This document shows, piece by piece, positions 6,482 to 53,669 of a DNA stretch of 64,000 nt. The position numbers were made by a program, and so were the translations under genes. The notes below the pieces were generated by a model. It had not been told where the DNA came from and searched no databases. It saw only the letters and a program-made list of their open reading frames with translations. How positions within the stretch are numbered: position 1 is the stretch's first letter; each line of letters starts with the position of its first letter. Source of the stretch: Marsupella aquatica (Eukaryota; Plantae; Marchantiophyta); assembly GCA_973895155.1 (NCBI GenBank), contig OZ316893.1, positions 432,760 to 496,759 on the forward strand. The letters run 5' to 3'.

Positions 6482-7529
6482 CACCGACAACATTCATGTA
6501 TATTTGCAACTTGGTTAGAGAAGATATGACCACACATCCCCCACCTGGCCTTCGCGATTTGACAAATAGAACATTGTCTGTTGAGCGTCAGGTTGCCATA
6601 GCCCTCTGTCGCTTTCCAGTGGTTGTTTGTTGTTGACGCTTTCAGAGATGTTTGGGGTTTCCGTGCCATGCATATCGGATACTGTTTGGCAATTTGTTAG
6701 GGCTTTAATTATGCGAGCAAGGAGAACACATTTGAGTTAACCACAAGGAGAAGCCATGGCAAGAGTGAAAGAAGAATTTTGCCAACTACAAGGATTACCA
6801 AATTGTTGTGGTGCAATAGACGACACTCATTTTCAAGTGGAGCTACCGCCTAGAACAAATTCCAATGATTACCGTGATTACAAGAATGGTCAGAGCATTT
6901 CTATGCAAGCTATCTGTGATAGTCGTCTTTGATTTTTGGATGTCTTTTTAGGATGGCCCGGTAGCATACAAGACTCTCGCCTTCTATGGGTGTCCGGATT
7001 TTTTGACGATGTTACAGTACACCACACAAAACTCTCACGTCCCATGTTTACATCACATACACGATTTTGTACAAGGGAGTACATTATTGGTGATGCAGGT
7101 TATCCTGCATATCCTTGGTTGCTAAACCCTTTCCCCGGTGCAAGAGAGCATAGCCGTAAGAGAGAATTTAACTACATGCTTAGCTCAACTAGGATGTGCG
7201 TAGAGCGTGCTTTTGGTCAGTTGGAAAATAGCTGGAGATTTATTTCATGCAAAATGTATTGTCCCTCTCCTTATCGATTGCCACATTATGTTACTTGTGC
7301 ATGCATTCTACACAATATTCGTATTGATCATGGAGATGTGTATGATCCAGCTTGGGGATTAGATGCAGACCCTCCTTATGAACCTGGAGGCCCTCCAGCT
7401 GGAGATCATAGTTTTGGTAATGGACGTAGACATCGTGTTGCAATGATGAACTATTTGTTGCCTGAGAGAGAATGGGAGCAGGAACGACAAAGACGTCGGA
7501 CTACCCCAAGGGATAATTATACATTGTGA
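6482..7529 (+). pseudogene. PIF/Harbinger (HARBI1-like, DDE_Tnp_4) transposase, 5'-truncated and disrupted
   Basis: Motifs LSVERQVAIAL, GLPNCCGAIDDTH, GWPGSIQDSR, IGDAGYP, FNYMLSSTRMCVERAFGQL and ACILHN. There are two in-frame stops and a frameshift upstream of ORF 6936-7529. Confidence 0.92.
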
Positions 7530-12782: not shown

Positions 12783-13779
12783 CCTCAACATCATCATCAC
12801 CTGCAAATGACATAATGTACTTGTTGTACTATTTAATAAAGGAAAGATATAGGTGTTGAAAAGGGGACAATAATTTCAGCGCAAAATAAAATCTGTGATA
12901 AAATATCACAGAATCACTTGCATAAAAAAATACCAAAATATAGCTACACCATGCAAAAATAAACCAATGTAGAGGCAAAAGTAAGTAAGTTCTTACTCTC
13001 TAATGATAAATCAAACGGATTCTCCTGTGCATTTTGGTCCATAGAAGAAATGTCAGAGATGAACTTTTTAGGTGGAGTGCCCGGTGGAGTGACGCGTGGA
13101 ATATTTGCATACCACTCCAACAATTGCTCATACAGATCAACAGAAAAATTAGTGGGGAATCGATGGTCGCGTTGGTCCTTGTCACCCATGTTAAAGTAAG
13201 AAACCTGCCCAGTTTTCTCCTTCTTTTCATAGTCATAAATTGTTTTAACTTGTTCTCAATAAGCTGCCACTTCTTCTTACAAGAGTTTGGATCTCGAGTA
13301 GGATTAGTGTACCCCTCATCCACCATAAACTTTGCCACTACTTTCCATTTCAACTTGCTACTAGTCATTTTTTTCTGTGTTGAGCCTTCCATAATGACAG
13401 TGTGAGAGGTTTTTTGCCGTGACAGGAAACATTAACAGGAAACAGGAAATGGTAACAGTAAAATAAGTGAGGAAATTTACACAATATTTGTGACATCCAT
13501 CAATAAAAAGGGTGTATAAAAATGCCGAGTATATTAGTAGTGCTTGGCGCTACTTTAAAATGTGTGTTACATGGTAGCAAAAACACAAAGCCCGATGACA
13601 ATACAAAATCTTAAGAGATACAGCGAGCAGAAAAACGGCTAAAGAACTGGGATGTAGTAAGCTCGCAAGAAAACATGGAGAACCGAGACTACAACCTAAC
13701 ACCTTCAATCTCCGATGGCGGTAGCGCCAGGCGCTACTATCGCAAAAGTCTTTAAGAAGACTCCATCTTTCAAACAATC

Positions 13780-14250
13780 TCAAGACGTTGATGAATGACA
13801 CTCATCATCGACTCCCGCATTGAAGCGATCCTCGTCTTGGCGAAATCCATCCTCTCGCTCAGCGAAAAAATGCGGTCCTGGAAGGCGACTCCTCAGCCTG
13901 CAATTTGGAATGTTGGAGTCAGAAAATCCGACTCGCCCGGTCCATTGTTGAATGCCCCTGAAAAACGCCGTCCGTCCAACCCTATAGACATTGGAAGGAT
14001 CCGGATCGTGAATAGAGAACCGTTCTCTAAAAGACCGGGGAGGAGACGAATCAGGGCATGATTCTGGTTTTGCTTGAAGGCTTATCCCTTCGTCCGAGGC
14101 CAGCCATAGTTGATTCCTCTCCATTGAGGTGATAGGGTGAGGAGTCTCATCGATCGGGACCTCTGAGGCAAGCAAATCAATTGAAGCTTTGCCTTCCAAC
14201 TTTGTGGGGCCGGAAGTTCTCTCACACAAGACTTGCTTTCCTTTCTCCAT
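13780..14250 (-). CDS. Hypothetical MULE accessory ORF or exon (156 aa)
   Basis: Open frame inside the element, bracketed by palindrome copies. No recognisable motif. Confidence 0.35.
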   Translation of the reverse strand: MEKGKQVLCERTSGPTKLEGKASIDLLASEVPIDETPHPITSMERNQLWLASDEGISLQAKPESCPDSSPPRSFRERFSIHDPDPSNVYRVGRTAFFRGIQQWTGRVGFSDSNIPNCRLRSRLPGPHFFAEREDGFRQDEDRFNAGVDDECHSSTS

Positions 14251-14652
14251 GGTCTCTGGATCAATGTCTATGCGGCGCTAAACGCAAAAGAGCTCCTGGA
14301 ATTCCTTGAACATCGGCGATGTCAAACGGAGAGGGTGTAAAATAGAAGAGGGTGTCGAAATACCTACCGTTGCAAAGGAATTCAACCTAGGGAAACAGGT
14401 ACGTATGGTAGTCAAGGTCTTTAAGGATTTTCATCGTACATCAGTACATGTACTTGCAGTTTGGAAAACATTACACTACACTTCACATCAGAAAAAGATA
14501 TGCGGAAGCTAATACCTTTCCCACTTCGTATTTATATAAAATTGATGCGTACAATAAGTAGCGTCCGGCGCTACTATTTTGGAGGAGGTAATCTGTTTTA
14601 AAATCATGAATATATAACTAATCTAATTTAAACTAACCTAATCCAATGTAAT

Positions 14653-14991
14653 CTAATCTCCAGATTCCGACTCACTACTCTCCGATCTATCCGTACTCTC
14701 TGCTTCATCGTCGATAAATTCATTTCGTGCCATATCATCGACAAATGGATGACGGATGAACTTTCTATCCAAACCACGTCTCAATCGCAAGCCCTTATTC
14801 TCCCAGGTCAGGGTTCTTCTACTCTCTTCTTTGCGAGCGGCATACTCTACGTATGAAGGCAATACAAATGGTTTCTCAGGGGTAATGAGGACTTTGCTTG
14901 AAAATTTCCTTCGCAGATTGAACCTCTCGCGAAGATTCCACCCTGACCTGCGAGTCAGTTGAAACACTAAGTACACTTCGAGAGATTCCAA
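14653..14991 (-). CDS. Hypothetical MULE accessory ORF (112 aa, basic core with acidic FIDDEAE tail)
   Basis: ATG-initiated open frame directly downstream of the ParB/MTase gene. Confidence 0.4.
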   Translation of the reverse strand: MESLEVYLVFQLTRRSGWNLRERFNLRRKFSSKVLITPEKPFVLPSYVEYAARKEESRRTLTWENKGLRLRRGLDRKFIRHPFVDDMARNEFIDDEAESTDRSESSESESGD

Positions 14992-15055
14992 TAATTCAAG
15001 TATACAAGATAAAAAGAAAACGGAAAGTTAAGTAATGTAAAAGAGCTTACGGGCA

Positions 15056-18000
15056 TTACTCACAAGAATCTGAATCTTCCGTTTCTCCTTCTGAATTCCC
15101 CTCATCCTTTTTCTCTCCTTCTTTCTGGACATCAATCTCGGCCTCTTCATCAGGTACATCATCTTCTTCTTCTTCGGAATCAAAATTCAGAACAGATCGA
15201 ACTTTATCTTTCACTTTTTTCTCCATGTCTTTGCTCGGACCAGCCTCACTCGATTCTTTCGGGAGGAGCAAGTCAGTGTATATCCTCTCTGCAATAGAAA
15301 CAAATTCCTTGCGATTCTCAATCCCAAGGATGAAACGGCCACAAAAATCACCAGCCACAAATGTACTTCCTGACCCAACCGTCCAGTCCATAATAATATC
15401 TCCCGGACGAGAAATTAACTCCAGGACAAACTGCATGAAACCAACCGGTAGTCGTGCATTCCCTGCAAATGCAGCTTCTAGAACAGGATCCTTCTTCAGA
15501 GTCTGCAGCCCAATGAGGTTTGTGATTGAAGGGTCCTCGGTTGAAGACAAAGGCTTGAACTTTGAATCTTTGGGGACCCTAACCTTTGATGTAACTCGAC
15601 TAAAGATATCAAGTCTTAAGGTGAAAACCTGGAAAATAAACAGTATTCAATATGAGATTTGGTAACATATAGTAATAGTGCCTGGCGCTACCCAAAAGAC
15701 CCTGCGTACACGAGGACATTTACATGTGAACATCAAACATGAAATGAGATCTATTAATAGCACCAAGCGCTAGCAAATGATTCTCTTGATTCAAAAGGAC
15801 AATTACCTGACAATCGCTTTTGGCCATGTACATTGGGGCACCCATAACAACGTTGAGCGTTTTGAGGCACTGGAACTTTTGGGAATCTTGGCTGGCCGAA
15901 ATTACTTGGGAGATCTGGTCATACTCCCCAATGTGCAAAACTGCTAACAACCCATCATTGGCAAGAAATGGGTCCATTGCCCGAAAGAAAGAGCCAACCA
16001 TTCGGTGATCCGGTACATTCCACTTTGGCAATTTTCGGTGAAGCAAAGAAGGTTGCAGACCTGTCGGTAGGTAGACAAAACCCGCATCCACCCCAAAAGA
16101 TCTCAACTTGCCTCCCCTAACTACCCCTTTCTCCCGGAGACCAAGTGTCACTAAGTCTTTTCCCCACTTCTCGACATTCGTCACCCACCTGGGTTTAGTC
16201 TCTTTTGTAAAAATAGAATCAAAAAAGTCCATTAGACTGGACTCAACAAACATATGACGGCAAACTTTGGACTTGAATTGACCAACTTCTTGTTGGACGC
16301 CAGTACATGCATACGAATCTCTAGAAGAAGAACCGAGATCAAGATTTTTCTTCTTCTTTTTTCTGGTGCTTGTGGCATCAACTGGACGATCAATGTTGGT
16401 ATTTGCAGGAGGAGTCTGCTCTTGGGTAGCATCGGCAGCCTCAGTGTTTGCTTTAGATTGATCAGGGGTAATGGTCGTCTTTGCATCTTGAGTTTCTTCT
16501 CCCTCTGATTTCCTACCCCCTGCAGAGAATCGAAAAGGTAAGAACACTGGGAAAACTATAACAGCGCCCGACGCTAGCCAAACATTTACTTTCTAAATTC
16601 TCGTGTATGAGTATACATTTAATAGTTTAAAGTAGCGCTTGGCGCTAACCAAAATCAATGCAAACAACTAAGTGAATTTCAGAGGAAAAGATCAAGAAGA
16701 ACTGCAAAAAGTCATATAACTTACGTTTTCTTCCGGATCTCGTGGATGGACTATTCAATCCTGTATCAACTTTTACTTTTGCGCGAGGTTTTTGGCTCCT
16801 TTCAACATGTAAGACTTTAGTCTCACATATTTTTTGAAGCTCCACTGCAGAAGCTTCAACGTCTCCCACCAATCCTTCCTTCATCTCAGACAACCATTTC
16901 CGAGGAACTAAAGATTTGGACAATTTCAAAAAGGCGTCTTTCTCAGATTCATCAAAAGGTGTATCCCACTTATCAGTATCGTGGTACCAGGAACAGTTTG
17001 TTCGCTCCCAAACGGAAATGTCACGTGGAGGATTGGCTCCTTCTACAGGATACATCGAGTAAACCTCACTGAAATCATCCCCATCCATGACCAACCACCT
17101 TTGGAACGCAGGAGGATAAGCCCAGAAATATTCAGGAGAATTGCTCTCCATGGACAAGAAGAACCGATAAAGGTATCTCTTTGCCCGCTTCTGGTTTCGG
17201 GAAGAAAAATCTTCTTTCTCCCCGTACTTTGACGCCCACATTGTGTTAAAAAACTTTGCCTTGACTGTATCTCCGTAACTTTTGAAATCATTGCAAATCG
17301 TCTGCACTAAAGCATCAAAAGTTTCTACACCTCCTGTGACAAGTCGTTCCGGAGGCATGACAGATTGAACTTGTCTGAGAGCAGTCTGCATCATTCCCAT
17401 TGAAATTCCTTCGATCCAACTCCACATGTGCCAAGTGTGACACCATTGTTTAACTGGTTCGTCGTTCACACTCGGCGGATGGAAAAATTGCTTGCGAAGT
17501 TCGGGCGTGCAATGCGCCACAAGAAGAGTGGAACGCAACTTTGGGTCCAAAGCTGAGACAGCAGTAAAGAGACGAGCACGATCCATCGTGCAAACCACAG
17601 CGTCTGCTTTCCGCTCTCGCTTGTTTTTCTCTGTCAGCGTGTACATTTCCGCACATGTTGACAGAAAATCTTCGAATTCGGGGCTAAGGAGTGGAGTGAT
17701 CTTTGAGGTCTTCACGCTCCATTCTTTTGTGGCCTCCTTCATCATTGCCGCATGACGCTTGGTGACCTCCTCCTTTGACCACGGCCTCCCTTGAGTGTTT
17801 GCAGTCGCCATGTCCAGTTTGAATTGCACAGAGTATGACTTGATCTTGTTCTCGCACAAGATGTACACAAGGGCCTCCAAAGGCATCTTCTTTGTATACC
17901 AAGAGCCTTTCCTTGTCTTTGCGCAAATTGCCTCAAAGCGTTTGAAGTTTCTGGCGTCAATTATCATCTTGTAATAATCAAGGTCATGGGACAGAATCCG

Positions 18001-18843
18001 ACTAATTCTGTCAGCATCGAGGATCCACGACGGTTCTACAACTGCTTGCCCCAATCTGTATACAACCATAATTTGTTAGCGCCAAACGCTAACCAAAATC
18101 CCATAATTGAAAATTTTTCCAAATCAAAGAAAATGACCAACTTACTGATTGACAGTGTGCATGGCGGCTTCAATCTCAATAAGAGAACCTCGATCTCCCT
18201 TGAACACAGTGCATAGCACACAAGGGTGGTACTTGACATTTTCGGGGTTCTCTTTTGTTACCTGTGACCAGGAATACAGACGATGATTCCCGTCGAACAC
18301 ACAAAACATCTTATCTTTTAAGACAAGGAAATCTGGATCTGCTTCTCATTTCTCATTTTGGACAGTCTAGACAGCATCCCAACTCTCGCGGATTTTGGGG
18401 GTACAAAATTGGATGACGCCTTTAGAATCAGCGGGTTGCACGTAGAATCGCATCCCAATAGAGGAGTTGTAACCGGAACTGCGAAATGATTCTTTTAGCT
18501 TCTCGATTGAAGCGCTCTCCTTCTGGAGAGTCCAAACAACTTCCATATTGACCAGGCGACAAAGCGGTATACGCGGAGGGTCCTTGGGCTCTCCTCTGAA
18601 ATCAGTGCCGAACGACATTGCATGTCTGGCAATCACATCTCCCATCGCTAGCGACCCTTCACACCCGTCTTCCATGATGAAATCACTCGAATTCTCCATG
18701 ACACCTCGTCTCTGCGTTGGGAAAGTCTGCGTAGAGTTCCGAAGAGAATGCGATGCAGTCGAGCGAGTAACGCGTCGTGTGTAAACAGAACCAGCGAAAG
18801 ATGTCTCCGATGTTTGAGAATTACCCGGGGAAGTGTTGTCCAT
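15056..18843 (-). pseudogene. Four-exon ParB-like domain + beta-class N4/N6 DNA-methyltransferase-fold protein
   Basis: Phase-consistent GT-AG introns at 18145-18056, 16724-16520 and 15806-15629. Exon 1 has MFCVFDGNHRLYSW (DGNHR at 18280-18294). Exon 3 has VDAGFVYLPTG...FLANDGLLAVLH at the motif IV-VI position. Exon 4 has PVGFMQFVLELISRPGDIIMDWTVGSGST...GRFILGIE (motifs X, I and II). Two in-frame stops in exon 1 (18367, 18346). Start codon uncertain. Confidence 0.72.
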
Positions 18844-19283
18844 ATCTGGATAAAGAGTCTTTGGCCCTAAAATTTGGAGAGTTCTCAGCCACTCACGAAG
18901 GCCTGCAACGTACTGTTGCAACCGAATAGATACGACCCACGTCCGAAACAGCCAGTATGGAGACCGTTTTCCCGCAACAGAATGACACGACAGCAAATCA
19001 CACAGCAAGATCAGATCTGTCAAATTGACCTTTGACAGGAAAAAGATCCAAAAAAGACCGACATCTGACTTAAATATGAATGTTCCATGATGAAAAATAT
19101 CAGGTAATAGAGCAATCGAACCAAAGAGAAAGGGACAGTTGGCATATAGTACTGACGTGGCTACTCAAATGTAACGAAGAATCTCATAATTAACATTCAT
19201 TCAAGAGGTAAAAACGGTCACACAGGCATAAAGTTACCGTTACAAATATTCGTTGGACAGACAACTCGGAGGATAAACATTAA

Positions 19284-19609
19284 TAGCGCCCGACGCTATC
19301 ATAAACATCACTCCTTCTAGACCAAAAAGTATACATATTTTCTGGTGAGTCGACCTGCAATACTAGTAATCCACTGAGTTTCTATAATAGCGCCCGACGC
19401 TATTATTGATTGTTGTCTAACATTCGTAAAATCTTTAAATGTTCCATCATATACATGAGAATCTCTTGTTTTTTTCATTTTCTGCAATAATAGCGCCAGG
19501 CGCTATCAATGTAGAGTATCAAACAAAGTCACGTTTTGCAGAATTCTGATTTTAAATTTCACGCTTTTGAATGACGATCTTGTAGGGTTTTTGCTAGCGC
19601 TTGGCGCTA
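19284..19609. promoter_or_regulatory. Phased array of four palindromes in the divergent intergenic region
   Basis: Start-to-start spacing is 104, 103 and 104 bp, with unrelated AT-rich spacers. The regulatory role is inferred from position. Confidence 0.65.
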
Positions 19610-19826
19610 TTATTCTCCGTTGTGAAAATGTTCGTTAAATTAACGGAAACATTTTGTTTTCAACGGTCATCCATCGCCATTTATCTCAAATTTATCCGTT
19701 GAGTTAAGGGTAAAGTTCTAAATATTTTTTGCGTTCGAGTGTGGTTTCTTCGTTCTTGATGATTTACTTGATGGAAATAATAAACCGAGGTTGGAAACAC
19801 CCTTACCATTTTGCCATTCTGTCAGA

Positions 19827-22800
19827 ATGTCACGGGTTATTAGGGTAAAATGTCTTGAAACGGGAGACATGATTAGCGTTCCTGTGACTTACGGAGATGG
19901 TAATCAGCGTGTGAGTGAAGATTATCTTTGCGGAAGGTTTGATGTTAGGAGGAAAGACATTGAAAGCTTAGGGACAACTGCTGAGGGGGTAGTGAATTCT
20001 TTTTACATTTTTGGTCAAAAATGGTGGGAACTGCACTGCGGTGTCGAGTACACGCTTGTCCTCCGAGGAAAAGTAGTGAAACTAGAGATGGTGGATGCAC
20101 CAACAAAGGTCACTGACCTCACGTTTGATGGCGATAACTCTTCCCCTGTCTCTCAATTGCCGATTGACATTAGGAACATCAAGCGTGAAGAGTGTCATTT
20201 GTTAAAGAATTCATTTCCAATGCATCAATGTAGTACCTCAACGGAAGACAATGGAGGTGACAAGCTTCTTAAATCTCCTTCTCTTGCTATAGTTTACAGA
20301 AGGAGCGCGTTAGATGCCCTTCTGAAATCGACTGGTCAAAGTGAGCTATCTCGATTTGTACGATCAGAGACTTTCAAGCACAAGCAAGTAGAATTTCTTC
20401 CCAAAACTTACAACGGCAATGTCATATTTGAGCTTCCGCCTGTCGATTGTGTGGGTTCAAAGGGGAAGCGTCTCCTTAACATGGACCGTTCAAAGGATTG
20501 CTATCTCTGGACTTGAATTCTTCCTACTTCTGCAAATGTTTTGCCGAAGAAGATGTGGGAGTTTGGTAAAGTCAGCTGTAGCGGATCACTTGAATGCCGA
20601 AACAAATCATGCAAGTTTTATACCAGAACAAATGGTAGGAATTGTAGCTCCTGGGAAGGGACCCCCAAGTTGGGAGGCCAACATTGTCCAGGAAAGTTGA
20701 TTGATTCAGGAGGGATTGTTTATCGGTATTGTCTTCAACTTCCGTTCTGTTTGGACTCCTATTCCGCAAAAATGTTTTACATGTACCCACAAGTTCTCCT
20801 GGATTCGGCGACAATGCAACATATGTCACGCCTCGCAGTGCATATGGGTGTCCATAACCATCCGTGTCGAAAGGTCTGGTCTAGAAGTTCGAAGATGATA
20901 GCGGTCGAAGAGATTCGGAAAGAGCATTTGAAGAATCCTTCTTCCTCGCCAAGTGTTTTGAAAAATGCGATCACTGGATCTCTTAAGGATGCACTAGATG
21001 AATCTATCGATGACATCTCAAAGATGGAAGAGAGTGAGATTTGGCAATCACTTATGCTTGTTTTGACTCCGCAGAAGTTCTCTGCCTTGTTTAAGAGTGT
21101 CCGGAAAGATCAGGCCGGGCGAGGAGACCTCGAATATCTGGTTTGGATGCAGAAGAATGTCAGGTTCCCATTTGTTCAAAAGTATCTACTTCCAGGGCAA
21201 GGCTCTAAGGAGGACCGAGCTCATATTTTCAAAATGACGATCAAAGGGCATGGATCCGGAATAGATTTGTTGCGACAGATGAAAAAGGGTGGACCCCTTG
21301 AAGGTGCGTGGGTGAGTTTTGATGTCATGAAACGAATGTCGAAAGATTGGAGTACTTTTAGCGCCCATGTTTATGACCATAACTATCGAGCTTTATGTAC
21401 AATATTTACGTGTGAGCTGAAAGCGGAGGACACTGAATCTCTCAAGCAAGCATCCAGGAGATTAATGATCTAGGTCGCTTTAGAAAATGGGGTAGATGAT
21501 GTTCAAATTCATGGATTCATGGCTGATAATGCTCAGTCGGGGTGGCATGCGGTCAGAAATGTTTTCTTTGGGGCCCATCCAAATCCGAAGAAAGAGAGAT
21601 CGGATGCTTTTCATTTTTACCAATCTTTGCACCGCCATTCTATCGAAGGAGTGCTTGAAGACAAACATTCTGAGCATCGCCTCCTTTGGGATAAGCTCAG
21701 AAATGCATCAACGTTTGTCGAAGCTTACAGGATTTCCCGAGAAATTGATTTGTGGTGGAGATCTGGCAATTGCATTCCCGGAAAGCTTCGGATGCTGCAG
21801 GGATGGATCTCTTGGTGGGTTGTAAGATGGCGGCAATGGGGAAATTTTATTCGACTTGTAAGTATCACCATTTTTGATTTTATTGAATAGACACTTCCAT
21901 ACTAGCGCCTGGCGCTATTATTAACACCTTATTTTTCTTGATTCTCTCAGCGTTTTGGTCAGCGCCTGGCGCTACCTTTAATTGATACATATTGTTGAAG
22001 AATATCAACTTATCTTCCAAAAGTAGATTTTGAGATTTGACGAACTCTGGCCGTCCTGCAGAGCAAAAGTGCACAAGGAGGGATGATTCCTAACTGCACT
22101 GGATTTGAGGCAGTTCATGGTATCATGAAAGCTTGGCAAGGGAAGAAAACTGTCGGATTATTTGAGGGTTGTAAAATTGACCACAATCGTGCAATCTCTT
22201 AAATTGCTGCTTATACTGCCTATCGGGATGGGTTACATAGAGGAACAGGTCCTACGGTATTTGAGCTAGCTTTCCGTTCAGCGGACCTGGCTGGATCCCC
22301 TCGATTGTTCGAAGAGGCTTCTAATTTGCTACTAGCTAATGCGGCGGAATTTGATTTGGAGAGGAGTACTCCATTGAACGGTGATTTTGTAACCAAATCT
22401 ATCAAAAGAAAAGGTCTAGCGACAGGGAATGTCTCGGCACAAGACTCCCATCGTCATGACACCATTCTGATAACAACACCGAATACACGGGGTTTGAAAC
22501 GGAGAAATCTGAACTCGGCTAAGTTTTCTCATATTCCACCAAGTGTTCCTGAGACATCGATCGATTTGACTGGGAGTGAGGGCCCAAGTGACTTGCTGGA
22601 CGCATCTGCTTCTGGTCCAGGTGAAGAATTTTCCACATTACCAGAAGTCTCTCAAATGGACCAAACTCCAGTCCTCCCTGACACGTCGCTTTTGGAGTCG
22701 GACGTTGAACCTGGGTCTTGGCATCTTCGTCGAATTTCAAGACTTGGGCCTGGTCCTCAGTGTAACGGGACATTGTCAAGTAGATGCGATTGTGATGAGT

Positions 22801-23573
22801 GTCGAAACCGGATTAAGAAGGTTGGATATCCTTCTAATGCTGGAGTGATCGGAATTGTTGCGAAGGGACATCGCCTGTTCAGGAGTGAACCTCATGCCAA
22901 GTTCGTGTGGTTTTGCCCCAACGGCAGTTGTTGGAAAAGCCGCCCACGTCGAGGCATCGCTAACCTGCCTCCTTATCCAGTTTCCTTGCCAGTACTAACA
23001 GGAACACATTTGTCAAACTTGGAGTTACGTTTCCTGGAAGAACAGGGTGTTGCAATCTCCAGACAACACCACCAAAGCATGCCTGCCAACCCTACGCCTT
23101 TTGACTTGAGAATCAATATTGATGTTTTTCCTGAGAAGATCAATATGGCACAAATCAACATCCGTGTTCGAACTAGGAATGGGCGCCCAATGAACCCCAG
23201 ATCAAATCTTACTCAGGAATACCATAGAAGGATCAAATCTACTGCGAAGGAAACAATGACTCTTATCACAGAATTGGACGTTTCCTCGGGGAACTCATAT
23301 GGGAAACGATTACTCATCCAAACACACGCTCATCTAAGGATGGCAAACACTTATTGGGTGCAGATTTGCGTATTCCCTTGTTGCTCTTGTGAGGACTTCT
23401 TTCGCCGACATTCTCGAGGAAGACCTTTCATGCCTTGTAAACATTTGTACTGAGTTTACAAAACAATCTTCAAGCTTGATCCGTTGGATTCGGTCTTACC
23501 AAGCCAGCCAATTTTGACTGTTGGAGAACTCCAGTACATCATAGGAAGGGGGAATTCGCATGGTTTAGAATAA
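19827..23573 (+). pseudogene. MULE-type DDE transposase with N-terminal WRKY/GCM-like Zn module and C-terminal SWIM finger
   Basis: One reading frame across an intron at 21858-22061. Motifs: CSGSLECRNKSC...HMGVHNHP; candidate catalytic residues in WVSFD, FMADNA and TGFEAVH; DAFH at the CxxH position; SWIM CSCEDF...PCKH. In-frame stops at 20514, 21471, 22200 and 23451, no frameshift seen. Confidence 0.82.
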
Positions 23574-24471
23574 TTCTTTTCAATCTACTAGACGTTGAAC
23601 GGGAATTTTTGGGTTGCCGTTTTTAACGGTAACAAATATTTTCTTAGCGGTCGGCGCTAGTTAAAGGCCGGCATTTTGTAATGTTGTTTTATCTGGCAAC
23701 AAGTATTTGGGTAGCGCTCGGCGCTAGTAAAAGGTCTTCTGATATTGTTGTATTCTGCCCTAAAAATATTGGAGTTCTGATTGAACTTGGTCTCCTTTTT
23801 GTCCAAAATTATGTCATGTTTTGTCGATGATAGTAGGTAATCTCCTGTTTTGTTGCACTCTTTTTCCTGTTATGAGCATTACTGTTTCCTGTTTCCTGTC
23901 ACGGAGGTTGGGCCCACAGTGTGATATTCATTCTGTTTTGCTGCAATGAGAACCGTCATCTCCTCGTCAGTCCAATCAGGCAACTTATTCCTTCCTTGAC
24001 GTTGTGGTGTAGTAGACTTGGGATCTGCAGCAATGTTCAGATCCAAATCACGCAATGGCACACCTTGTGAAGCCAAACTTTGGCCTAGAACCTGTCTCTG
24101 ATTTTGGCTTGTCATCTGAAAGGGACACAAATAAGTCAGTGGTGATTTTGCACATCAATATGTTTTAAACATATTCAATGCACAAAACACATCAAGTTCA
24201 TAGAAAGCATATAAAAACAAATTAAAAAAAATTTAAACCACAAGAGTTCTTCAAAAACCAATTGAAATTATTGCAACATGTTAAACCACATGTGTCCTCT
24301 TGAGGCTTTCAATATTTTCAACAAAATGATGAAGCAAAGTTTTATCATATTCATATATAATGATCCACAATATAATCATGGTCTGGAAAAGACAGTGCCA
24401 ATAGTAGGTCAAATAAGTATGACCTTAGAATTACATATCTATCTCTATCTTATGAAGGTAGTTTCATATGT

Positions 24472-25068: not shown

Positions 25069-26592
25069 TGTGTCAAAACCTGACCCTGAAAGGAATTTTC
25101 ACAACAAATTTGACATAGCAAAGTTGTTGTACTTCATGAATAGTTTATATGCCTTTCTAAGTATGTATCGGGCGGTATGTTTGGGTACTATTTAATGCAC
25201 AAGTCTACCGCAGCCACTACAAAGGAAGCAAGTAGTCACGACCTACAATTGTGCACTCCCTTCCAAGCTCCCTTCATGATCAGGTATACTACATTGGTGC
25301 ACTCCAAACTACCCTATGTATAGAGTTTGTTGTACAGTATGAGCTTGAGTATATGAAACAATCGAGCATCATCATTCAAACCAAACTATACTGACATTGG
25401 GCATACAAAAGCTATAAAACTGAATCCAAAATTTGAATTGCACTTGACATGACTTCAAAACATTCCACAGTTCAATTGAAAGTGATCCATCCAGGTTAAT
25501 TACACAAAATGTGAGATGCATCCACTCGCTCGGTAGGGCAGCATCCTGCCCCAGCCCTACTCTTCGCATTCCACCACAGCAATGTAGAGCCTGGTCTAGC
25601 CACTATTGCCGATCGATCCAAAAAGTGAGAAGGAGCCTCCTCTCTCACATTTGTTACACTCTTTGGGCAAGGCAGCATCCTGCGCCTAGCCCCAGTCTTC
25701 CGTGTTCCACCACAGCCATGTACAGTAGAACCTATCTAGCTTGGTTGGATCACAGCTGCTCTAGCCACCTACCTAGTTTCAACAACCGATGGGGAGTACA
25801 GAGAAGATGGCTGGCTGATTGATTGACTTTCAGTAGAGGTCGGTGGTGATTTCGCACATTTTGAAGAGAGAGGCAGGCGGGAGATGAAGGAGTCATTCTC
25901 ACAAATTATTGACAATTGAAATGCAGCATAGAATGTGAGACTTCAACTTACTTGTGAGCTTGATTGGAATCGGTAAGGTTAGCCGGGGCAGTGTTTTTCA
26001 ATTGTTGTCGTGTGTTGATGCTGTTTCAACGCTTACAAATTGAAAGAATCTGGAGGCACGATCAAAAGTGACTGCTATTGAGTGCATGTACAATCCTTAT
26101 CTATTTCTACACTCTCAATGTCGTCTCAATGCTGAAAGCTTACCATATGCTGACTTCAATTTCTACACTCTCACGAGCACTCTCATGATGCTCTCAAGTT
26201 CAAATACGTCGCAGTGACAGGAACACATGCGAAGTGTTCAGGTGAAGTGCACAGTGAATTGTTGAAGCATTTCATATGTAGGGCAATTTGCAGGGTCTCC
26301 TACGTGTACGAGCAGGTGAGAGTTGATAACCAGGACCAGATCAGGCGCACGGCAAAATCATAGGCAGCCCAGTTCAATGACATGTGGAAAGCAAATGCCA
26401 TTGTCTTCTGTGCCATGCAAAGGTTGGGACTGTGATGGGTTGCAAGGTTTGCGTGCCTTGCCCTTCCAGGTCCTAGTTTAGTGCCGTCAAGACGGCCTCG
26501 TTCAGGGGGCAGTTTTGTTCACTCAGGGGCTGCCACCGTTTGTATGAAAGGCCATTTTTTGAAGGACCGTCTACATATATGCAAGACGGCCC

Positions 26593-27363
26593 TAAGAGTC
26601 CGAGCCTTTGGTATACTGGTCTGTTATGCATAGACTGAAGTGTGTGGCGGATTCACGAGCAGTCTGGTTTGGAAATTTTGAGGTGGTGAATCGTTGCATG
26701 TTTAATTGATTGTCATGATAGACTGCGGATCAGAAGGCCTTACATCGCGCGGTTGCAGGATTTTGACTGGGATTTTGGTGATCTAGGGTTTGGTGGATGG
26801 TGAGTTTGACAGCCTCATACTGTAGTTTTCACCCTTGTGGTGTGCTCTTTCCTCTATCACTTCCTCTGTTGCTACAATTTCTGTCACCTCGAGGGGTTTC
26901 GTTTCTGCCTGTCATTTGTATGTGCTTTCTTTTGTTATAACTTGCGTCTGTGGCTGTCTTGTCTATGCCTGGTTTCATAGCATATATCTTAAGAAGTAAG
27001 CAGTATATCGCTCAGCCTACAAGATCCAATGGCGAGTGGTGAAGAAGAAAATATTATGAACCTGCTTCGGGGAACTATTCATGACGAAACACAATTGCGA
27101 GACGTTGCTGCAAAACTATGCCTTGGCTGGGTCGGAGTACCTCTGTTGCTAGAGTCGTCGGAATTGGAGCTCGAAGCCATAATCCGTCGTGTGTTCCCAG
27201 TGGCACTTGACAGATTGGAAATGGCAATTAAGTTTGCAATTCGGCTTCAAAAAGGAAACTCTACGGATGGTAATTCCAACTGAATTTCACAGCAATGTGT
27301 TTCTCGTCAGTATCTTCTGGTTCTTGTTCTGGTTTGTCTTTTTGTTGAGTTTTTTCCTTTGAG
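26593..27363 (+). repeat. ~770-bp duplicate of 29783-30553 (upstream region, first coding exon and intron start of the kinase gene)
   Basis: Long colinear near-identity that ends abruptly after TTTTTCCTTTGAG in both copies. Confidence 0.92.
27029..27269 (+). pseudogene. Orphan SAM-like header exon (paralog of 30219-30459), with no downstream exon of its own
   Basis: 80 codons plus a G|GTAATT donor. Homology to the intact copy stops at 27363. Confidence 0.7.
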
Positions 27364-29550
27364 TAGTAGATGGATAGTATTATGCAATTCTAGGAATGGG
27401 TCCAAAAATCACGAGGTGCCGGATAATGGTTCAAGCATATTGCCAGAGAGAGTTTGAAACCTGAATTTAGGGTTTAGGGCCTCGCGCTGTGTGACATCTA
27501 CCTTTGGTTGTGGTGGAGACTTCGCTGGTAGACCTGACTTTGGTGGCGTTGGTGTTCGCCTCAATGATGATGATGATCCAACAGATTGATCTTTCTGACC
27601 TACTGCGGTTGGGACACTGCTATCTGCAGAGACCTTGACAGTGTCGACATTGGTTTGATGCTTCGGCGGAGAGTCGTCTTCTAGAGGGCCATCCGTTGCC
27701 GGGTTGAAACGACGGACCTCAAGTCGTCATTTCCCATTAGGAGGAATGGTTGGAACCCCTGACATGTCTCTGCACTTACAAGAACCAAACAGTGATTAAA
27801 AATGAACGCCATTTGTGAAATGAAAAGCCTTTCCACGCTAAAAAACAATGAATGCCTTGACGCAGAGTTTTTCACTGAAAAAAGATCAGAGAGGCGCGTA
27901 CCTGAACTTTGATCTGGTGAGCTTTGAGGACTTGTAATACTAATAGCAGTTCCAAATCAACGAGCTCAAGATGGAGGCGGTGGAAATGATCGGGAGAACG
28001 ATTCCAAAGACTGGAGGTTTTAGGGTGACTGGCTTTGTTTAAGTGGAGGGTTCGCCTTGCATTCGCCTGTACGTGGTTCAAACGGTAATTGTCCCATTTA
28101 CTCGCAAGTGACTTGATTAGGTTCCAAACGGCCTTAATCATCCTTGACTCATCAGTAATGAGATGCGGATTCTTGTCACGCGGGAATTGCGCTATACTTT
28201 TCCGTTTTTGCTTTGCCTTGGGTGGGAATTTTCACATGTGGGAGCCTGTATCTGGAGCCCGTACCTTGTGTGAGTGGCCCAAAGTGTTGGTGTGATTGGA
28301 CTAGCGATTTCGCTGGCCTGAAGCAAATGTCATTTGAATGATCGGACATGGAGGTAAAAACAGGTGGCTAGAGTTGCCTCGTAAAAATTGGTCCAAATGT
28401 TTTCTCCCAGTACATTCAAGGGACTAGAACATGCTCATGTTTACTCATTTTCTATGTCATTATCTTCTCCTTTTTTAATGATCAAACGGGGTCTTCATGC
28501 TAGCGAGGAAGATTCCGGACCTGATTTTGGGGCCCAATACAAGGGGAAAACTTGTTTGTGCAAGCAAAAATTCTACTATTTGCTCACATGTTACAATTAC
28601 CCTCTGAGAGGTGCTTTCTATTCCCTGGTTAGAAATATATTAAGATTTAGGATTAGGATATTTCTGCCTTGATTGTAGGTGCTTTGCTCCTTTGGCTGGG
28701 GCTCGGTTGTCTTTGGGTATGCCTGGATGGGTCCCCTGGGCTCCTTTGCCTGCGACCTCAGTGTGTCACTTACCTACGACACAGATGAAGTAGGCTTTTT
28801 GTCTTCCCCCTCACTTTGGGGCTGACTCGAAGTTAGTTTCAGGTTTTTGCTTGGCCATGATTTCACTTGTCTTTGTCTTCGCTTGGCTTTGGTGCTGGCC
28901 ACCTGGCTCTCTTTCCGTTTTGGGGCTTTGTGGGCTTTGCCCTGGCCTGTTTGGTCCTCCTTTCCCGCGGGGTTTCGCGGGTTTTATTGAAAAAAAGGGA
29001 AAAAAAGAAGAAGAAAAAAAAGAGCAAGCTGAGTTGCGCTCCAACTGTCAACGCACAGCCGAACCCACATTCACCGCAGCCGGTCATCCTGAGCCCAGAC
29101 AAAACACCCGAATCTACTCAAGCTCTCGATGAACACGGAATGAGAGGCACGAAGAAGAATGACTAGAATGCGAGAGAAAGCTCATCCCGGCCGAGACGGA
29201 AATGGCTCCTGCACAGACGACAAACTTCCAGCCTGACGGCGTTTCCAGAAAGTGAAATGGGAAGTGGCCACATCCTGCTGCTCTCCTAGATTAACGCCCG
29301 CCCAGGAAACCACCGGCCCATTGAACAAAATCTGGGCCGTCCAATAGCAGCTGTCCGTTGGATGGCGATGCAGGAACGCCCTCAACCCTAACAATCTGGG
29401 CCGTTCATTTTTAAATGGAGGGCAGAGATTAGCCGCGGATTGAGCGCCCTGAATGGACGGCCCAGATTGGCCGCGGGTAGAGCAGCCTGAATGAAGGACC
29501 AAGATTTGCATCATCAAGGGCGATCCCGAATGGAGGGCTAAGTACCAAGG

Positions 29551-29749
29551 AGTAAGGAAGGACCATAAACATATACATAGGGGTTCTCAAATATAGACCA
29601 GTAAGGAAGGACCATAAACATAGGGGTTCTCAAATATAGACCCGGAGGTTACACAAGGCACAACAGGTCGGCAACGGATCAACATTGGGAGGTCTCAAAT
29701 ATAGGCCCGGGGGTTTACACAAGGCACAACTGGTCGGGAACGGATCAAC
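29551..29749. repeat. Two pairs of short local duplications upstream of the kinase gene
   Basis: AGTAAGGAAGGACCATAAACATA...GGGGTTCTCAAATATAGACC occurs twice, and TACACAAGGCACAAC.GGTCGG.AACGGATCAAC occurs twice. Confidence 0.75.
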
Positions 29750-30218
29750 TCCTTGTCTGCCGACCGAGGAGGCCGTCGGCATAAAGAGTCCGAGCATTCG
29801 GTATACTGGTCTGTTCGGCATAGACTGAAGTGAGGCGGATTCGCTAGCAGTCTGGTTTGGAAATTTTGAGGTGGTGAATCGTTGCATCTTTAATTGATTG
29901 TCATGATACACTGCGGATCAAAAGGCCTTACATCGTGAGGTTGCAGGATTTGGACTGGGTTTTCGGTGATCCAGGGTTTGGTGGATGGTGAGTTTCACGG
30001 CCTTGTACCGTAGTTTTCATCCTTGTGGTGCTCTTTCCTCTGTCGCTTCCTCTGTTGCTACGATTTCTGTCAACCCGAGGGTTTCGTTTCTGCTTGTCAT
30101 TTGTATGTGCTTTGTTTTGTTATAACTTGCGCGTTTGTGGCTGTCTTGTCTCTGCCTGGTTTCATAGCATATATCTTAAGAAGAAGTAAGCACTATATTG
30201 TTCAGCCTGCAAGATCCA

Positions 30219-32321
30219 ATGGCGAGTGGTGAAGAAGAAAATATTATGAACCTGCTTCGGAGAACTATTCCTGACGAAGCACGACTGAGAGACGTTGCTG
30301 CGAAACTATGGCTTGACTGCGTCGGAGTATCTACGTTGCTAGTGATGTCGGAAAAGCGCCTCGAAGACTTAATCCAGCGCCTGTTCCCAAAGGCACCTGG
30401 CGGATTGATACTGGCAGTTGAGTCGGCAATTCAGCTTCAAAAAGGAAACTCTACGGATGGTAATTCCAACTGAATTTCACAGCAATGTGTTTCTCGTCAG
30501 TATCTTGTGGTTCTTGTTCTGGTTTGTCTTTTCGTTGAGTTTTTTCCTTTGAGCACCCCTCTGTTGCTGCTTTGTTTTCTTTGCTGAAAAGTGATCAAGG
30601 GTATCATGGACAGCAGCTGTCGCCCTTGCTCTGGCATTTGTTTTGAAAGCACTTTTGCAATTACAGGTGTCCTGTGTCTTCCTGCTTTGCTAACCGATAA
30701 AGCATTTCTGCCGGAATCGTGCCAAATTTGTAGACTCCTTGCTCGAGTGATTATTGGATGACTTTCCTGTTTTTCTCTTCCTCTTCAACACTTCGTGATT
30801 GGTGTGTACGCAGAGGGGGCTCGACTTGCAAAAAAGGCAAAACCGTCACCAGAGGTCCTGTCCTTCGCAAGAGCTGCTGTTGATGCTAGACAGCGCTATT
30901 TTGGGAAACTGTTGGAACCACCTCCGACGCTCCCACGAAGTGCACATGAACTCTCGGAGTTTTTGTCCCAGACACCAGTACCGCTCCCAATTCGCAGTCT
31001 TGTAATTTTCAAGAAAATATGCTCTTCTGAGCTGGTGGAGCTTGATATTCCCGCAGCGGCGAAAGACTTGGCAACCTTCTGCGACGGTGTGTTCGGACAG
31101 ATAATGCGTCATTGTCCAGGCAATGAGGCCACCAGCTCACATGAATTGGCTAATCTCACTGGAGAGTTCATCTCATTATTAAATGAGGAGGCTCCAGCAA
31201 ACGGAAAATTACAAGGTTTGGACTGGTTACTGGATTCACCCAATCCCCCGACTAGTACTGTAGCATCGCGACCACTAAAACCGCTATTAAGACCAGATTT
31301 TCAGCTGTTTGTGAGGGATTGTCTCATTCTCCGATGGGAGAATAAGACAGACCGGGCACTTCGGCACGAGGCTGCAGTTGAGAACACCTCAAAATTAAAG
31401 GCATGGAGCCCTTTGTTCTATGGTAAGCTCCCTTATGTGATTGGTGGTTGCTCCGGTGGAAGGCTGTTTCAATGGCTGAAGCTCTATCCGCGAGGCAAGG
31501 AAATTGTTTCTGAAAGTATCTCACAACTCTATGACTTGAATATGTTGAGCGATGTAGCCAAGTTCCTACATAGCACCATTCGGATGCACTGTCTCCTACA
31601 GAAACTACAGGAAGAACTGGATAGTTACATCCCCTTGGCATTATATAGGCCAATAGCAAGAGGTGATGGTGGAGCAGTGACGATCTATCCTAACTGCGTG
31701 ACGAAGGAAATCCCACGATTGATGAAAGATAAGGTGACCGCGATAAAATGCCTGTATGAAAAAATCGATGGTTCCAGGTACCTGATCCAACTTATATGCG
31801 CCCGATCATCCAGGGCTAAAACAGTATTGCGACTACAACCTGTTGGTGACCCATCTGCAAAGCCTAAGGATTGCAAGGATTTAGTAAATGCCATGCATGA
31901 CATGTTATGCGGCCTTGCGGACTTGCACATGAAAGGCTACACCCACAGGGACATAAGGTGGCCCAACGTTATCAAAGTAAATGATATGGGTGAATGGAAA
32001 TGGGTGATCATAGACTTGGAAGCTGCTGGACCCGACAATGAAGTATGGGTTGGTGAGGACTTAACGGGTTGGGATGCGGAAACGTTGGAAGAAGACAATG
32101 ACAAAAGGAAAAGATACACCAAGGGATCGGACATGTACCAACTCGGGAAACTTATAGCTGAATGGCTCGATGACTTTTATATAGGCGGTACGGAAGAACG
32201 TCAATTGATGAGATCCCGGGCAAAACAAATGCAGCAGGAGCGTACAGCAGCAGCGAAGATGCTTGAGGATATCTGCAAGAAACGTTGCGAACGATGTCGC
32301 GTGTTTGGCACAAAGCTGTAG
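30219..32321 (+). CDS. Crinkler/CR-like protein: SAM-like header + PD-(D/E)xK-like domain + protein kinase (~582 aa, two exons)
   Basis: Exon 1 (30219-30459) and exon 2 (30814-32321) join in phase 1. LRPDF...LRWENK is an REase-like signature. Kinase motifs GLADLH, HRDIRWPNVI, IIDLE and SDMYQLG are present. No stops. Confidence 0.78.
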
Positions 32322-33955: not shown

Positions 33956-34094
33956 TGTTATACCCTAATTATGATTGGGTATACTAACTATAGTTAGAAC
34001 CCATGGTTAACTCCAACCAGAGTTACCATATGTATATATTCTCTCCTTGAAATAGAAGAACATATCATTGTTGGTGTATTTTTAGTTTGTAACA
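33956..34094 (+). repeat. 5' LTR (139 bp)
   Basis: Identical to the 3' LTR except for one TA unit. Confidence 0.95.
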
Positions 34095-34327
34095 CGTTAT
34101 CAGCACGAATGTGCTCTTAATTTATTTTTTAGGGGGTCGTTCAGTCTTTAGGCAGTTATACTTGACAGTTATCGAATTTGTCAACTTTTGGGCATCTGAT
34201 GCATGCCTTTTTCTTTAAGAAAACATCGAGTAACAATGAGGGATGATTACCAATAGCATTCCTATTCAATAGAATTATTTTTTTCGCACCACAATTCGGA
34301 ACTCAATTAGACATTTTTGATCTCAGG

Positions 34328-37300
34328 ATGACATCGAATTCCATTGAGAAACTTCTATTCCCAGCCTTGCAGATTGATGGCAAGAATTACAATGATTGGT
34401 ATATAGATGTAGAGGTCCATCTCACTGCAAAACGAATTGATGAGGCCATACACACAGATGTCGGTGTAGACCAATACACCAAGGCACAAGCCTTAGTACT
34501 ACTCCGACATCACTTAGTAGATCCTCTGAAACGTCAGTATAAGACTGTATACAATCCTCGATTACTCTGGGATGCATTGAAATCGAGATTCGAGCATATC
34601 ACTACGATCAATCTGCCTAATGCTCTACAGGCATGGGTTACTCTAAGAGTCCAAGATTTCAAATCAGTAGATTTATACAACAGTGAGATGTTTAGGATCT
34701 CAAATGAACTCCAAATGTGTGGAGAACCAGTAAGTGATAAACAGCAAATTGAAAAGACATTAGCTACATTTCACCCGACTAACTTGGTGATTTCGAACCA
34801 GTACAGGAATATGGCTTTTACAACATACTCCGCGCTCATTGCCCACGTGCTTTTAGCAGAACAAAATTCCATCCTCCTTATGAATAATGCAAAGGAAAGA
34901 CCTCCGGGGACACTTCCTGTACCACCCATTACTGAAACCAACTTAGTCACACAGGATATGAGAGGAGAAACATATATGACAACTTCTAATGGACAAACAT
35001 TAAGGGGGAGAGGTTCATACCGTGGCCGAGGAACAATTAGAGGAAGAGGAAATTTCTCTCAAAGAGGTGGATATAGTTCCAACTACAGAGGACGAGGTCG
35101 TGGAAGAATGAACAATGCGAATAGGAGCAACTGGAAGAGTGGAAAAGCAGATTTCCAACAACCAAATCGGGAGCGACAACGAACCTCCTTCAGCAATAAA
35201 CAACAAAACCCAATTACATGTTTCAGGTGCGGAACCAAAGGACACACCCAGAAGGTATGCCATGCACCTAGCCACCTCATTCTACTTTAGAAGAAGAGCT
35301 TGAACGAATCAAAATTCGAAGCACATGGGGCTTATTTAGAGTCACCCGAGATTATACCAGAAATCCATATGCTGAATTCATCACTGAATATCGAGGACCC
35401 AGACTTCTGCATCGTCGACAGTGGTACAACCCATACTATCCTTTGAGATAATAAATATTTCCATGGAATTACCCCTTCACAAAGGAAAATAACAACGATA
35501 ATGGGACAACATCAAATTGAGGAGGGTCATGGCAACGCCACAGTAGTTCTCCCAGAAGGAACAATTATTAAAATCACATCTGCGATATATGCTCCCAAAG
35601 CAACGAGAAATCTACTTAGTTTTAAAGACATAAGAGCAAATAACCTACATATTCAAACAGATATTCAAGACTCACGAGAAGTTCTACAAATAGTATCTCA
35701 CTCGTCAAAAGGCAGACTTGTTAAAGAAACTTTACAAGCTTACCCTTTAGGATACTATGCAACTCGAACTCAATGCTACCATGTTCAGACTGAATCACAG
35801 AACCTCACAGAGATCTGGCATAGACGATTGGGACATCCTGGAACAAGCATGTTCCACCGAATTGTCAATAACTCTAAAGGAGTATCAAAAGAAGTACATC
35901 CTAGAGCATTCAAAGGACCATGCCTTGCCTGCTCACAGGGCAAGATGATTACTGCTCCCTCCAATTCCAAAACCGGAAACCACATACCTGCATTTCTTGA
36001 GAGACTTCATGCAGATGTTTGCGGACCCATCGATCCTCCCAGTGGCCCATTTCGCTATTTTCTGGTCGTCATAGACGCAAGCTCCAAGTGGTCAAGGGTT
36101 TCCCTATTATCAACCCGGAACCTCGTTTTCTCTCGGATTCTGGCACACATTATACGGCTAAGAGCTCAATTCCCAGAATATCCAATTTGAACCCTCAGGA
36201 CTGATGGAGCTGGAGAGTTTACATCAAAAAATTTTGATGAATTTTGTCTCATCAACGACATTGATTCACAATACAATGTACCATATGTACATTTTCAAAA
36301 TGGTTATGGCCGAGTCACTTATTAAACGCATATAACTGATCTCTCGACCTTTATTAATGCAATCCTCTCTTCCAGCGACTGCATGGGGACACGCAGTCCT
36401 ACATGCTGCGTCTCTCCTTTTATACAGACCATCAGCCTACAATAGCACTACACCTCATCAATTGGCATTTGGAAATTCTCCAGACATTTCACACTCGAGA
36501 ATATTCGGATGTCAAGTCCTCGTACCCATCCTAGGTCCCAAACGGACAAAATTAGGACTTCAGAGAAGAAAAGGTATCTATGTGGGATTCGACTCTACAT
36601 CGATCATCCGATACATGGAACCTACCACTGTAGATATATTCAAAGCCCGCTTTACTGATTGTCATTTTTATGAAACCATTTTTCCAACTTTAACATCACC
36701 AGAGGGAAAACAGAAAACATTACCAAATATATTCACCTGGCACGCTAGTCCTGAACTATGTCCAGATCCACGCACAGAACAGGCTGAATTAGAAGTCAGA
36801 AGAATTATCCAACTCACAAAGATTATGGAAGTTATACCTGATTCATTCGCAGATGCAATGAATGTAACTAAATCTCATATACCAGCAACGAATACCCCAT
36901 CCCGGATACAAATTGGACCTCAGTTAGCGTCTGATCAACAATTGAAACCAAAGAGAGGACGCCCTCTAGGGGCTGTTGACAAACAACTCAGACAAAGGCG
37001 AAAGCTTCCAACATCACTTGAAACAAGACCACAAGCTCATACTTATATTTCAGAATCATATCACCCAGAGACAGCCATACATTATAATACCACTGGCCAC
37101 ATCTTAGATAGAACCCGAGTAATACCTGATGATCAATTTTCTTTTCATATATCACAGGATATTACTAACTTACCTGACCCGAAATCTGTCAAAGAAGCAC
37201 AAAACCAAACAGATTGGCCTAAATGGCAAATAGCAATGAACTCCGAGTTAGATTCTTTGATATCTAGAAAAGTATTTGGTCCTATAACCATTGCTTCTCC

Positions 37301-39927: not shown

Positions 39928-40068
39928 TGTTATACCCTAATTATGATTGGGTATACTAACTATAGTTAGAACCCATGGTTAACTCCAACCAGAGTTACCA
40001 TATGTATATATATTCTCTCCTTGAAATAGAAGAACATATCATTGTTGGTGTATTTTTAGTTTGTAACA
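39928..40068 (+). repeat. 3' LTR (141 bp)
   Basis: Preceded by the PPT and followed by the TSD. Confidence 0.95.
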
Positions 40069-53525: not shown

Positions 53526-53669
53526 AAATGCCTTTGTACCTTAAATGCTAAATATATTTTACTTTCTGTGCAGTCTGCTAAATTGTAGAGTCTATCTAAA
53601 TGCCTTTGTACCTTAAATGCTAAATATATATTACTTTCTGTGCAGTCTGCTAAATTGTAGAGTCTATCT
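53526..53669. repeat. 72-bp tandem duplication just upstream of the PHD ORF
   Basis: 53526-53597 and 53598-53669 differ at one position. Confidence 0.9.

Follow-up and report, generated by a model that had tools for sequence, protein, structure and literature searches.

How transposons tell self from non-self and escape DNA methylation is known mainly from the VANC proteins, TnpA and the transposases of flowering plants. A stretch of 64,000 nucleotides from the liverwort Marsupella aquatica (contig OZ316893.1, positions 432,760 to 496,759; hereafter the window) raises this question in another setting. It contains a Mutator-type DNA transposon that carries, besides its transposase, a divergently oriented "cargo" gene combining a ParB-type fold with a methyltransferase fold, together with 16 copies of a short palindromic site. 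What binds these sites, and to what end? The best reading, to which we assign a probability of about 0.45, is one by analogy with VANC: the cargo protein would bind the palindromes, recognise the copies of its own family and counter their silencing by host DNA methylation, and would thus represent VANC-like self-recognition assembled from phage-type ParB-methylase parts.

The element has moved. In contigs of three of the four runs (X1, X3, X6), position 13396 is joined straight to 23916, with 9 letters fitting both sides; this joint is the uninserted allele and the insertion is real. The original prediction of a 10.5-kb element bounded by a target-site duplication is thereby borne out, as is its description as a pseudogenised copy, with two internal stops in the cargo gene and four in the transposase. 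The insertion splits a Myb/SANT-like frame (Pfam Myb_DNA-bind_4, E 2.4e-4, below cut-off). Between 212 and 2408 contigs per run match the element at 80 % identity or more; since these matches are numerous and range from >99 % down to <90 % identity, they represent a multi-copy family, found under at least two organism labels. One contig of run X3 (joint 15636-21947) is without 6.3 kb, i.e. most of both genes, which suggests that internally deleted, non-autonomous copies exist. As candidate terminal inverted repeats, the ends offer just one short and degenerate match in inverted orientation, in which the word ACAGGAAA recurs; these words are likely sites for the transposase. The limits of the element are:

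13406..23915, no strand: whole Mutator-type DNA transposon, pseudogenised copy, 10,510 bp, delimited by the target-site duplication and the empty-site joint
13397..13405, plus strand: left 9-bp target-site duplication ACAGTGTGA
23916..23924, plus strand: right 9-bp target-site duplication ACAGTGTGA
13416..13462, plus strand: left terminal repeat, degenerate, containing ACAGGAAA three times
23863..23904, minus strand: right terminal repeat, degenerate, containing ACAGGAAA three times in inverted orientation

The cargo gene had been described as a divergent gene of four exons. These four splice in frame through GT-AG introns into a frame of 1105 codons with two internal stops, both in exon 1, but the count may be one short. 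A fifth exon is probable from its in-frame join through a GTGAGT donor, and its word PFVDDMA resembles the tail of the Riccia protein P0031.

18146..18843, minus strand: cargo exon 1, acidic N-terminus and ParB/sulfiredoxin-fold domain (~18582-18148), GNHR at 18291-18280; two private stops
16725..18055, minus strand: cargo exon 2, conserved all-helical middle region
15807..16519, minus strand: cargo exon 3, linker and N-terminal half of a beta-class methyltransferase; degenerate motif IV YLPT at 16073-16062
15056..15628, minus strand: cargo exon 4, C-terminal half of the methyltransferase with the S-adenosylmethionine-binding motif I DWTVGSGST at 15388-15362, acidic tail
14653..14966 or 14653..14975, minus strand: probable cargo exon 5

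At the two stop positions of exon 1, 96-97 % of the family-alignment rows carry W and F, so that both stops are private to the window copy. Of the exon-1 variants in family contigs (41 rows, 10 of them intronic and one unlisted), 21 of the 30 listed fall at third positions and 20 are synonymous, against 23 % expected. These figures support a conserved cargo family whose ParB-fold exon is under purifying selection. A search of 1.84 billion proteins with exon 1 returned 120 clusters at E<=0.001 (clusters at 50 % identity; P0074 among them looks spurious), with D/E-GNHR present in 80. The 20 clusters that were looked up comprise 11 from Riccia sorocarpa, one from Adiantum capillus-veneris and eight without organism, and cluster members add five Riccia models; the family is expanded in Riccia. 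The Riccia protein P0132 (1207 aa) has the same domain order as the window protein, with 28 % and 24 % identity over the two halves, and the window sequence groups with 13 of the 14 Riccia rows (SH-like approximate likelihood ratio test (SH-aLRT) 98, in a quick unrooted tree with 16 near-duplicate rows omitted). Exon 1 alone had no match in Pfam, PDB sequences or plasmids, and only chance-level matches, in two cases, among 401 bacterial genomes. For exon 2, none of 3820 candidates among longer proteins matched; its assignment to DUF6589 (Atlas match 0.91, low recognition) was a weak lead to which the model gives no support. A further match, L005, fell on the opposite strand of an unrelated gene and was discarded.

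The N-terminal part of the cargo protein, in which the DGNHR motif is present as predicted, has a ParB/sulfiredoxin (Srx) fold. The Riccia homolog P0044 was modelled from an alignment of 90 rows, window exons 1 and 2 among them, with a predicted local distance difference test (pLDDT) score of mostly 80-98 over this domain; a single-sequence model of exon 1 reached a pLDDT of 35 and was not used. The four highest VIA rows, out of 48,161 chains, were KorB (Z 7.2, root-mean-square deviation 2.8, 93 aligned), PadC (6.7), pNOB8 ParB-N (5.7) and Arabidopsis Srx (5.5), with alignments spanning model residues ~135-307, which correspond to window exon-1 residues ~89-233. The Foldseek check that had been proposed, run on this Riccia model, came out in the same sense: its first 12 rows are all ParB, Noc or Srx, although none reaches E<=0.001 (E>0.3), and several viral rows are ParB-like. 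The GxxR phosphate-binding motif is kept in 73 of the 86 family rows covering it. Because the fold, this motif and two programs agree, the domain is assigned to the ParB/Srx fold.

This does not make the protein a canonical ParB. Against a profile of 30 chromosomal ParB domains, exon 1 does not rise above shuffles (hhalign probability 0.2), and Pfam ParB is matched by none of the 70 cargo homologs scanned. Matches to the DGQHR profile are weak (E 0.094; E 4; 5 of 90 rows; local profile 13.9 bits vs a shuffle maximum of 4.9). In post hoc comparisons, exon 1 minus one internal stretch scored 15.0 bits against four phage fusion domains, with 0 of 150 shuffles as high, and the same trimmed exon against chromosomal ParB was equalled by 10 of 150 shuffles. 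Since there is no chromosomal ParB profile match and no helix-turn-helix (HTH) could be assigned, the cargo belongs to the ParB/Srx superfamily rather than to canonical ParB; the ParB-like protein of the original prediction stands as a fold but not as a member of the chromosomal type.

The C-terminal beta-class amino-methyltransferase fold, also predicted, is borne out. The last methyltransferase exon matches Pfam N6_N4_Mtase (E 1.4e-8, above cut-off), the beta-class motif order is complete with motif I kept, and hhalign gives a probability of 97 over 202 columns against five phage enzymes; Atlas matches of an exon-3 homolog to N6-methyltransferase clusters were all <0.9. The catalytic motif IV, in contrast, has been lost. 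The phage enzymes have DPPY or SPPY at this position, the window copy and its 64-68 % identical relative P0009 have YLPT, and four Riccia proteins have DLPT, DLPT, DMPT and DMPS. The aromatic fourth residue of the motif, which stacks on the flipped base, is missing from all six readable family sequences, and the first Asp is kept in four of four Riccia sequences and lost in the window and P0009. In the rotifer enzyme N4CMT, the change of SPPY to APPA abolishes activity (PMC8885841). Judged by these residues, the cargo methyltransferase is likely a pseudo-enzyme, and because motif IV is degenerate in six of six readable sequences, marking by methylation, which had been one of the suggested functions, finds no support. 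It is very improbable that the methylase is active through an unusual motif IV, depositing N4-methylcytosine (4mC) or N6-methyladenine (6mA) at or near the CCNGG-centred site and so marking self or blocking 5-methylcytosine (5mC). Conservation of motif I and of the whole beta-class order, the Asp retained in Riccia, and the existence of active bacterial-type 4mC enzymes in Marchantia (bioRxiv 10.1101/2021.02.12.428880) and rotifers (PMC8885841) would all suit such an enzyme, but the aromatic residue is gone throughout, the window and P0009 have lost the Asp as well, and the rotifer substitution kills activity.

The palindromes are restricted to the element. TAGCGCYNRGCGCTA occurs there in six exact, nine one-mismatch and one two-mismatch copies; the predicted number of 16 therefore holds only with mismatches allowed, but all 16 do lie inside. 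Elsewhere in the window there is none at <=2 mismatches, in agreement with the claim that no full copy would be found, three matches appear at three mismatches, and 100 shuffles yielded none. All 16 copies fall within the non-coding 27 % of the element (p ~6e-10): five in three cargo introns, two in the transposase intron, four in the intergenic region, one before a TATA-like box and four near the ends.

13538..13736: palindromes 1-2 (13538, 13722), left subterminal region
14559..14573: palindrome 3, ~20 nt ahead of the TATA-like box that precedes a small third open reading frame (ORF)
15676..15772: palindromes 4-5 (15676, 15758), cargo intron 3
16562..16647: palindromes 6-7 (16562, 16633), cargo intron 2
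18077..18091: palindrome 8, cargo intron 1
19284..19609: palindromes 9-12, between the divergent genes, spacing 104/103/104 bp, spacers unrelated
21903..21974: palindromes 13-14 (21903, 21960), transposase intron 21858-22061
23645..23726: palindromes 15-16 (23645, 23712), right subterminal region

Because the flanks are unrelated (median best identity 34 %; one pair 60 %), the palindromic core is maintained on its own. Compared with the perfect palindrome TAGCGCCNGGCGCTA, 15 of 18 departures are C>T or G>A, an excess that fits deamination of 5mC in a methylated, decaying copy, although some of these changes may be shared by descent. Joints in relatives suggest that site-bearing units have been both gained and lost. 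Transposable elements frequently carry host-factor sites, and the palindrome might be bound by a protein of the host, or act as an RNA or structural element, and be unrelated to the cargo. The AACGG/CCGTT words clustered ahead of the transposase speak in favour of this idea. It is nevertheless quite improbable, given that the other 53.5 kb with their Harbinger, copia and CACTA elements hold no copy and that transcribed and probably untranscribed positions are occupied alike, a poor fit to a role in RNA.

A more serious competitor for the palindromes is the transposase, which is encoded on the opposite strand by two exons:

19827..21857, plus strand: transposase exon 1, Cys/His-rich N-terminal region, catalytic D 21321 and D 21525, DxxH; stops 20514, 21471
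22062..23573, plus strand: transposase exon 2, catalytic E 22107, SWIM-type CxC..CxH 23379-23447; stops 22200, 23451

Joining the exons across the intron 21858-22061 gives the same spacing as in the intronless relative L002, and family relatives differ at both listed exon-2 stops (22200, 23453). Six homologs are 33-59 % identical, one of them from Riccia sorocarpa. D, D, DxxH, E and CxC..CxH are all found, and relatives conserve them; we take them to have the catalytic and SWIM-type roles indicated above. Neither the window transposase nor five homologs match Pfam MULE or SWIM, PDB sequences gave no match, and no relative was found in viral contigs. Since no Pfam family matches, membership among the Mutator-like elements (MULEs) rests on the target-site duplication and the transposase motifs. 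Four AACGG/CCGTT words stand in the 80 bp preceding the transposase ATG (window 19617-19700), and the window has just one more cluster of this kind, near the right end of the element. The 48 % identical relative L001 also has three of these words upstream (108-224), and a TATCCGTTGAGTT stretch is common to L001 and the window. The cluster resembles MYB3R/MSA cell-cycle elements.

According to the main rival explanation, the transposase itself binds the palindromes, for self-activation or to arrange the element for transposition, and the cargo is an accessory factor without sequence specificity. On its own, the AtMu1 transposase binds sequence motifs and switches on cognate copies (bioRxiv 10.64898/2026.08.24.746577), the Cys/His-rich N-terminal region is conserved here, four palindromes are subterminal, and the cargo is without a matched DNA-reading HTH. 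However, the ends carry a different repeated word, 12 of the 16 palindromes are >1 kb from either end, and AtMu1 transposase peaks at the terminal inverted repeats (same source), which makes this serious rival rather unlikely overall. The cargo is the likeliest partner of the palindromes because a two-fold site suits a dimer, because the transposase has its own end repeat, and because the placement of the sites matches that of VANC21, which binds introns, intergenic and terminal non-coding DNA (PMC5735166). That the cargo binds the 16 palindromes is thus reasonably probable.

Are the two genes linked in other copies? In the metagenome contig L004, a decayed ParB gene of the family lies ~5 kb upstream of a transposase relative, on the opposite strand and head-to-head. 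The transposase is 26-37 % identical to that of the window; the ParB gene gives E 7e-23 with the family profile and is not significant by tblastn. This arrangement is seen in one of four transposase loci, the other three being short. In L001, positions 92-104 form a near-palindrome that is one mismatch from the KorB OB pattern and sits at about the position of the window's last intergenic site. It could be a variant site of the L001 subfamily and is a single post hoc instance.

Binding by the cargo could also serve the reverse purpose. As a KorB-like repressor, or as a bridging or condensing clamp, the protein would limit or organise transposition rather than oppose silencing. KorB is the best fold match and a sliding clamp that turns into a long-range repressor (PMC11790492), and four palindromes lie between the divergent genes; yet the intronic and non-coding placement matches known anti-silencing systems and no KorA-like partner is evident, and we judge this role improbable.

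Under VANC-like self-recognition, a dimer of the cargo, composed of the ParB/Srx-fold domain, the helical middle region and the likely inactive beta-class amino-methyltransferase, would recognise the two-fold site in non-coding DNA. The conserved GNHR pocket may bind a nucleotide, of a type not predictable from sequence: orphan ParB-fold members bind CTP, ATP, GTP or nothing detectable, with 11 of 28 having bound nucleotide (bioRxiv 10.1101/2025.10.10.680097). Nucleotide binding may gate loading and spreading as in KorB and ParB. The methylase fold would retain S-adenosylmethionine and DNA binding and write no mark, occupancy of palindromes in promoters, introns and ends would keep both genes transcribable, and the transposase would in turn act through ACAGGAAA, the distinct word repeated at both ends. 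That the cargo loads and slides like a clamp goes one step further and is suggested by the KorB/ParB fold. In its most ambitious form, a phage-type ParB-methylase fusion, imported by a transposon family of seed-free land plants, would have become a nucleotide-gated sliding clamp that loads at parS-like palindromes distributed over the element, spreads along it and shields it from silencing. This we consider unlikely; if true, it would place a ParB switch in eukaryotic chromatin and might provide a site-directed epigenome tool.

Several observations weigh against self-recognition by the cargo. The anti-silencing role is proposed by analogy only, and KorB, which matches the fold best, acts as a repressor. 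The fold was scored on a Riccia homolog, with middling values (Z<8; Foldseek E>0.3), and this homolog is 28 % identical to the N-terminal half of the window protein, and a structure search with the middle region gave generic helical matches only, with no HTH. L004, which has both genes but is badly decayed, yielded no palindrome in repeated copies, and the perfect palindrome is absent from L001-L003, all of which are short. By locus tag, the Riccia transposase model R1sor_020142 has none of the 16 recovered Riccia cargo models as its neighbour. At site 18077, one of two near-identical listed variants loses a core base in X1, and the probable fourth cargo intron is without a palindrome. What remains of the original interpretation is a mobile MULE-type element with both folds, element-specific sites placed as in VANC systems and a selected family; methylation marking is not supported, nor do the sequence comparisons point to a canonical ParB.

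The element contains one further candidate gene:

13780..14250, minus strand: possible small third gene, 156 aa; palindrome 3 lies just upstream of the TATA-like box before this ORF

No family match was found for it. The neighbours in the window are plant-type Harbinger, copia and CACTA genes. A Harbinger DDE_Tnp_4 fragment (6936-7529, plus strand) and the interrupted Myb/SANT frame (13003-13431 / 23882-24154, minus strand) may be two genes of one Harbinger. A copia long terminal repeat (LTR) retrotransposon at 33956-40094 has LTR segments ~98 % identical and gag-pol remains. An ORF at 30762-32318 (plus strand) with a Pkinase_fungal match (E 3.9e-7) adjoins the repeat pair 26587-30480. At 53654-59989 (plus strand) and 61697-62347, a CACTA Tnp2 region follows PHD-finger and BRCT ORFs, which may indicate a further transposon with cargo or else a gene of the host.

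Phages are known to encode fusions of a ParB fold with an N6_N4 domain, and anti-silencing guided by sequence motifs is known from transposable elements of angiosperms. No description of a plant transposon with ParB-fold/methyltransferase cargo was found in the open literature, supplements (e.g. that of PMC4738411, which could list such proteins) being outside this scope, and the word "methyltransferase" does not occur in the accessible part of the MULE survey PMC6446971. The element is real and probably an undescribed variant. The family would be an independent solution built from prokaryotic parts, made testable by a defined 15-bp site and by annotated full-length liverwort proteins. It also brings to light a large branch of the ParB/Srx fold in eukaryotes that is uncatalogued and escapes Pfam.

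Among known systems, VANDAL/VANC (PMC5735166) is close in layout: a MULE that pairs an accessory gene with a short motif, specific to the element and amassed in introns, between genes and in non-coding DNA at the ends. The motifs of VANC measure 9 bp, share one orientation and sit in tandem repeats, whereas the present site is a 15-bp palindrome with unrelated flanks, and the cargo has ParB/Srx and amino-methyltransferase folds. The TnpA protein of Spm and the AtMu1 transposase (bioRxiv 10.64898/2026.08.24.746577) likewise bind clustered family-specific motifs and de-silence copies, but these regulators descend from the DNA-binding domains of transposases and work chiefly at the termini. In protein architecture, the nearest counterparts are phage and prophage fusions (PMC4738411; bioRxiv 10.1101/2025.10.10.680097; L050-L052), which also combine an N-terminal ParB fold and a C-terminal beta-class methyltransferase in one chain. 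They measure ~400-510 aa and have an intact DPPY or SPPY, while the plant protein has ~1100-1200 aa, introns, a degenerate motif IV, an insertion of ~40-45 aa inside the ParB fold and a long helical middle region.

RK2 KorB (PDB 8qa8; PMC11790492) provides the best structure match to the N-terminal domain, is encoded by a mobile element and reads the OB palindrome with its TAGC..GCTA arms; it further has an HTH and a dimerisation domain, binds CTP and represses. The arms common to OB and the element site may be a coincidence, and the spacing differs. Bacterial-type beta-class amino-methyltransferase folds are also found in eukaryotes in MpDN4MT1 of Marchantia (bioRxiv 10.1101/2021.02.12.428880) and in bdelloid N4CMT (PMC8885841), but these are host genes with a catalytic (T)SPPY and shown activity, and a ParB domain is unmentioned in the accessible part of either text. 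DIRS1 (PMC4738411), finally, offers a precedent for a transposon-borne amino-methyltransferase judged inactive from catalytic-residue substitutions; it is a retroelement with a methyltransferase of the PCIF1-derived group, and the accessible text describes for it neither a ParB fold nor cognate palindromes.

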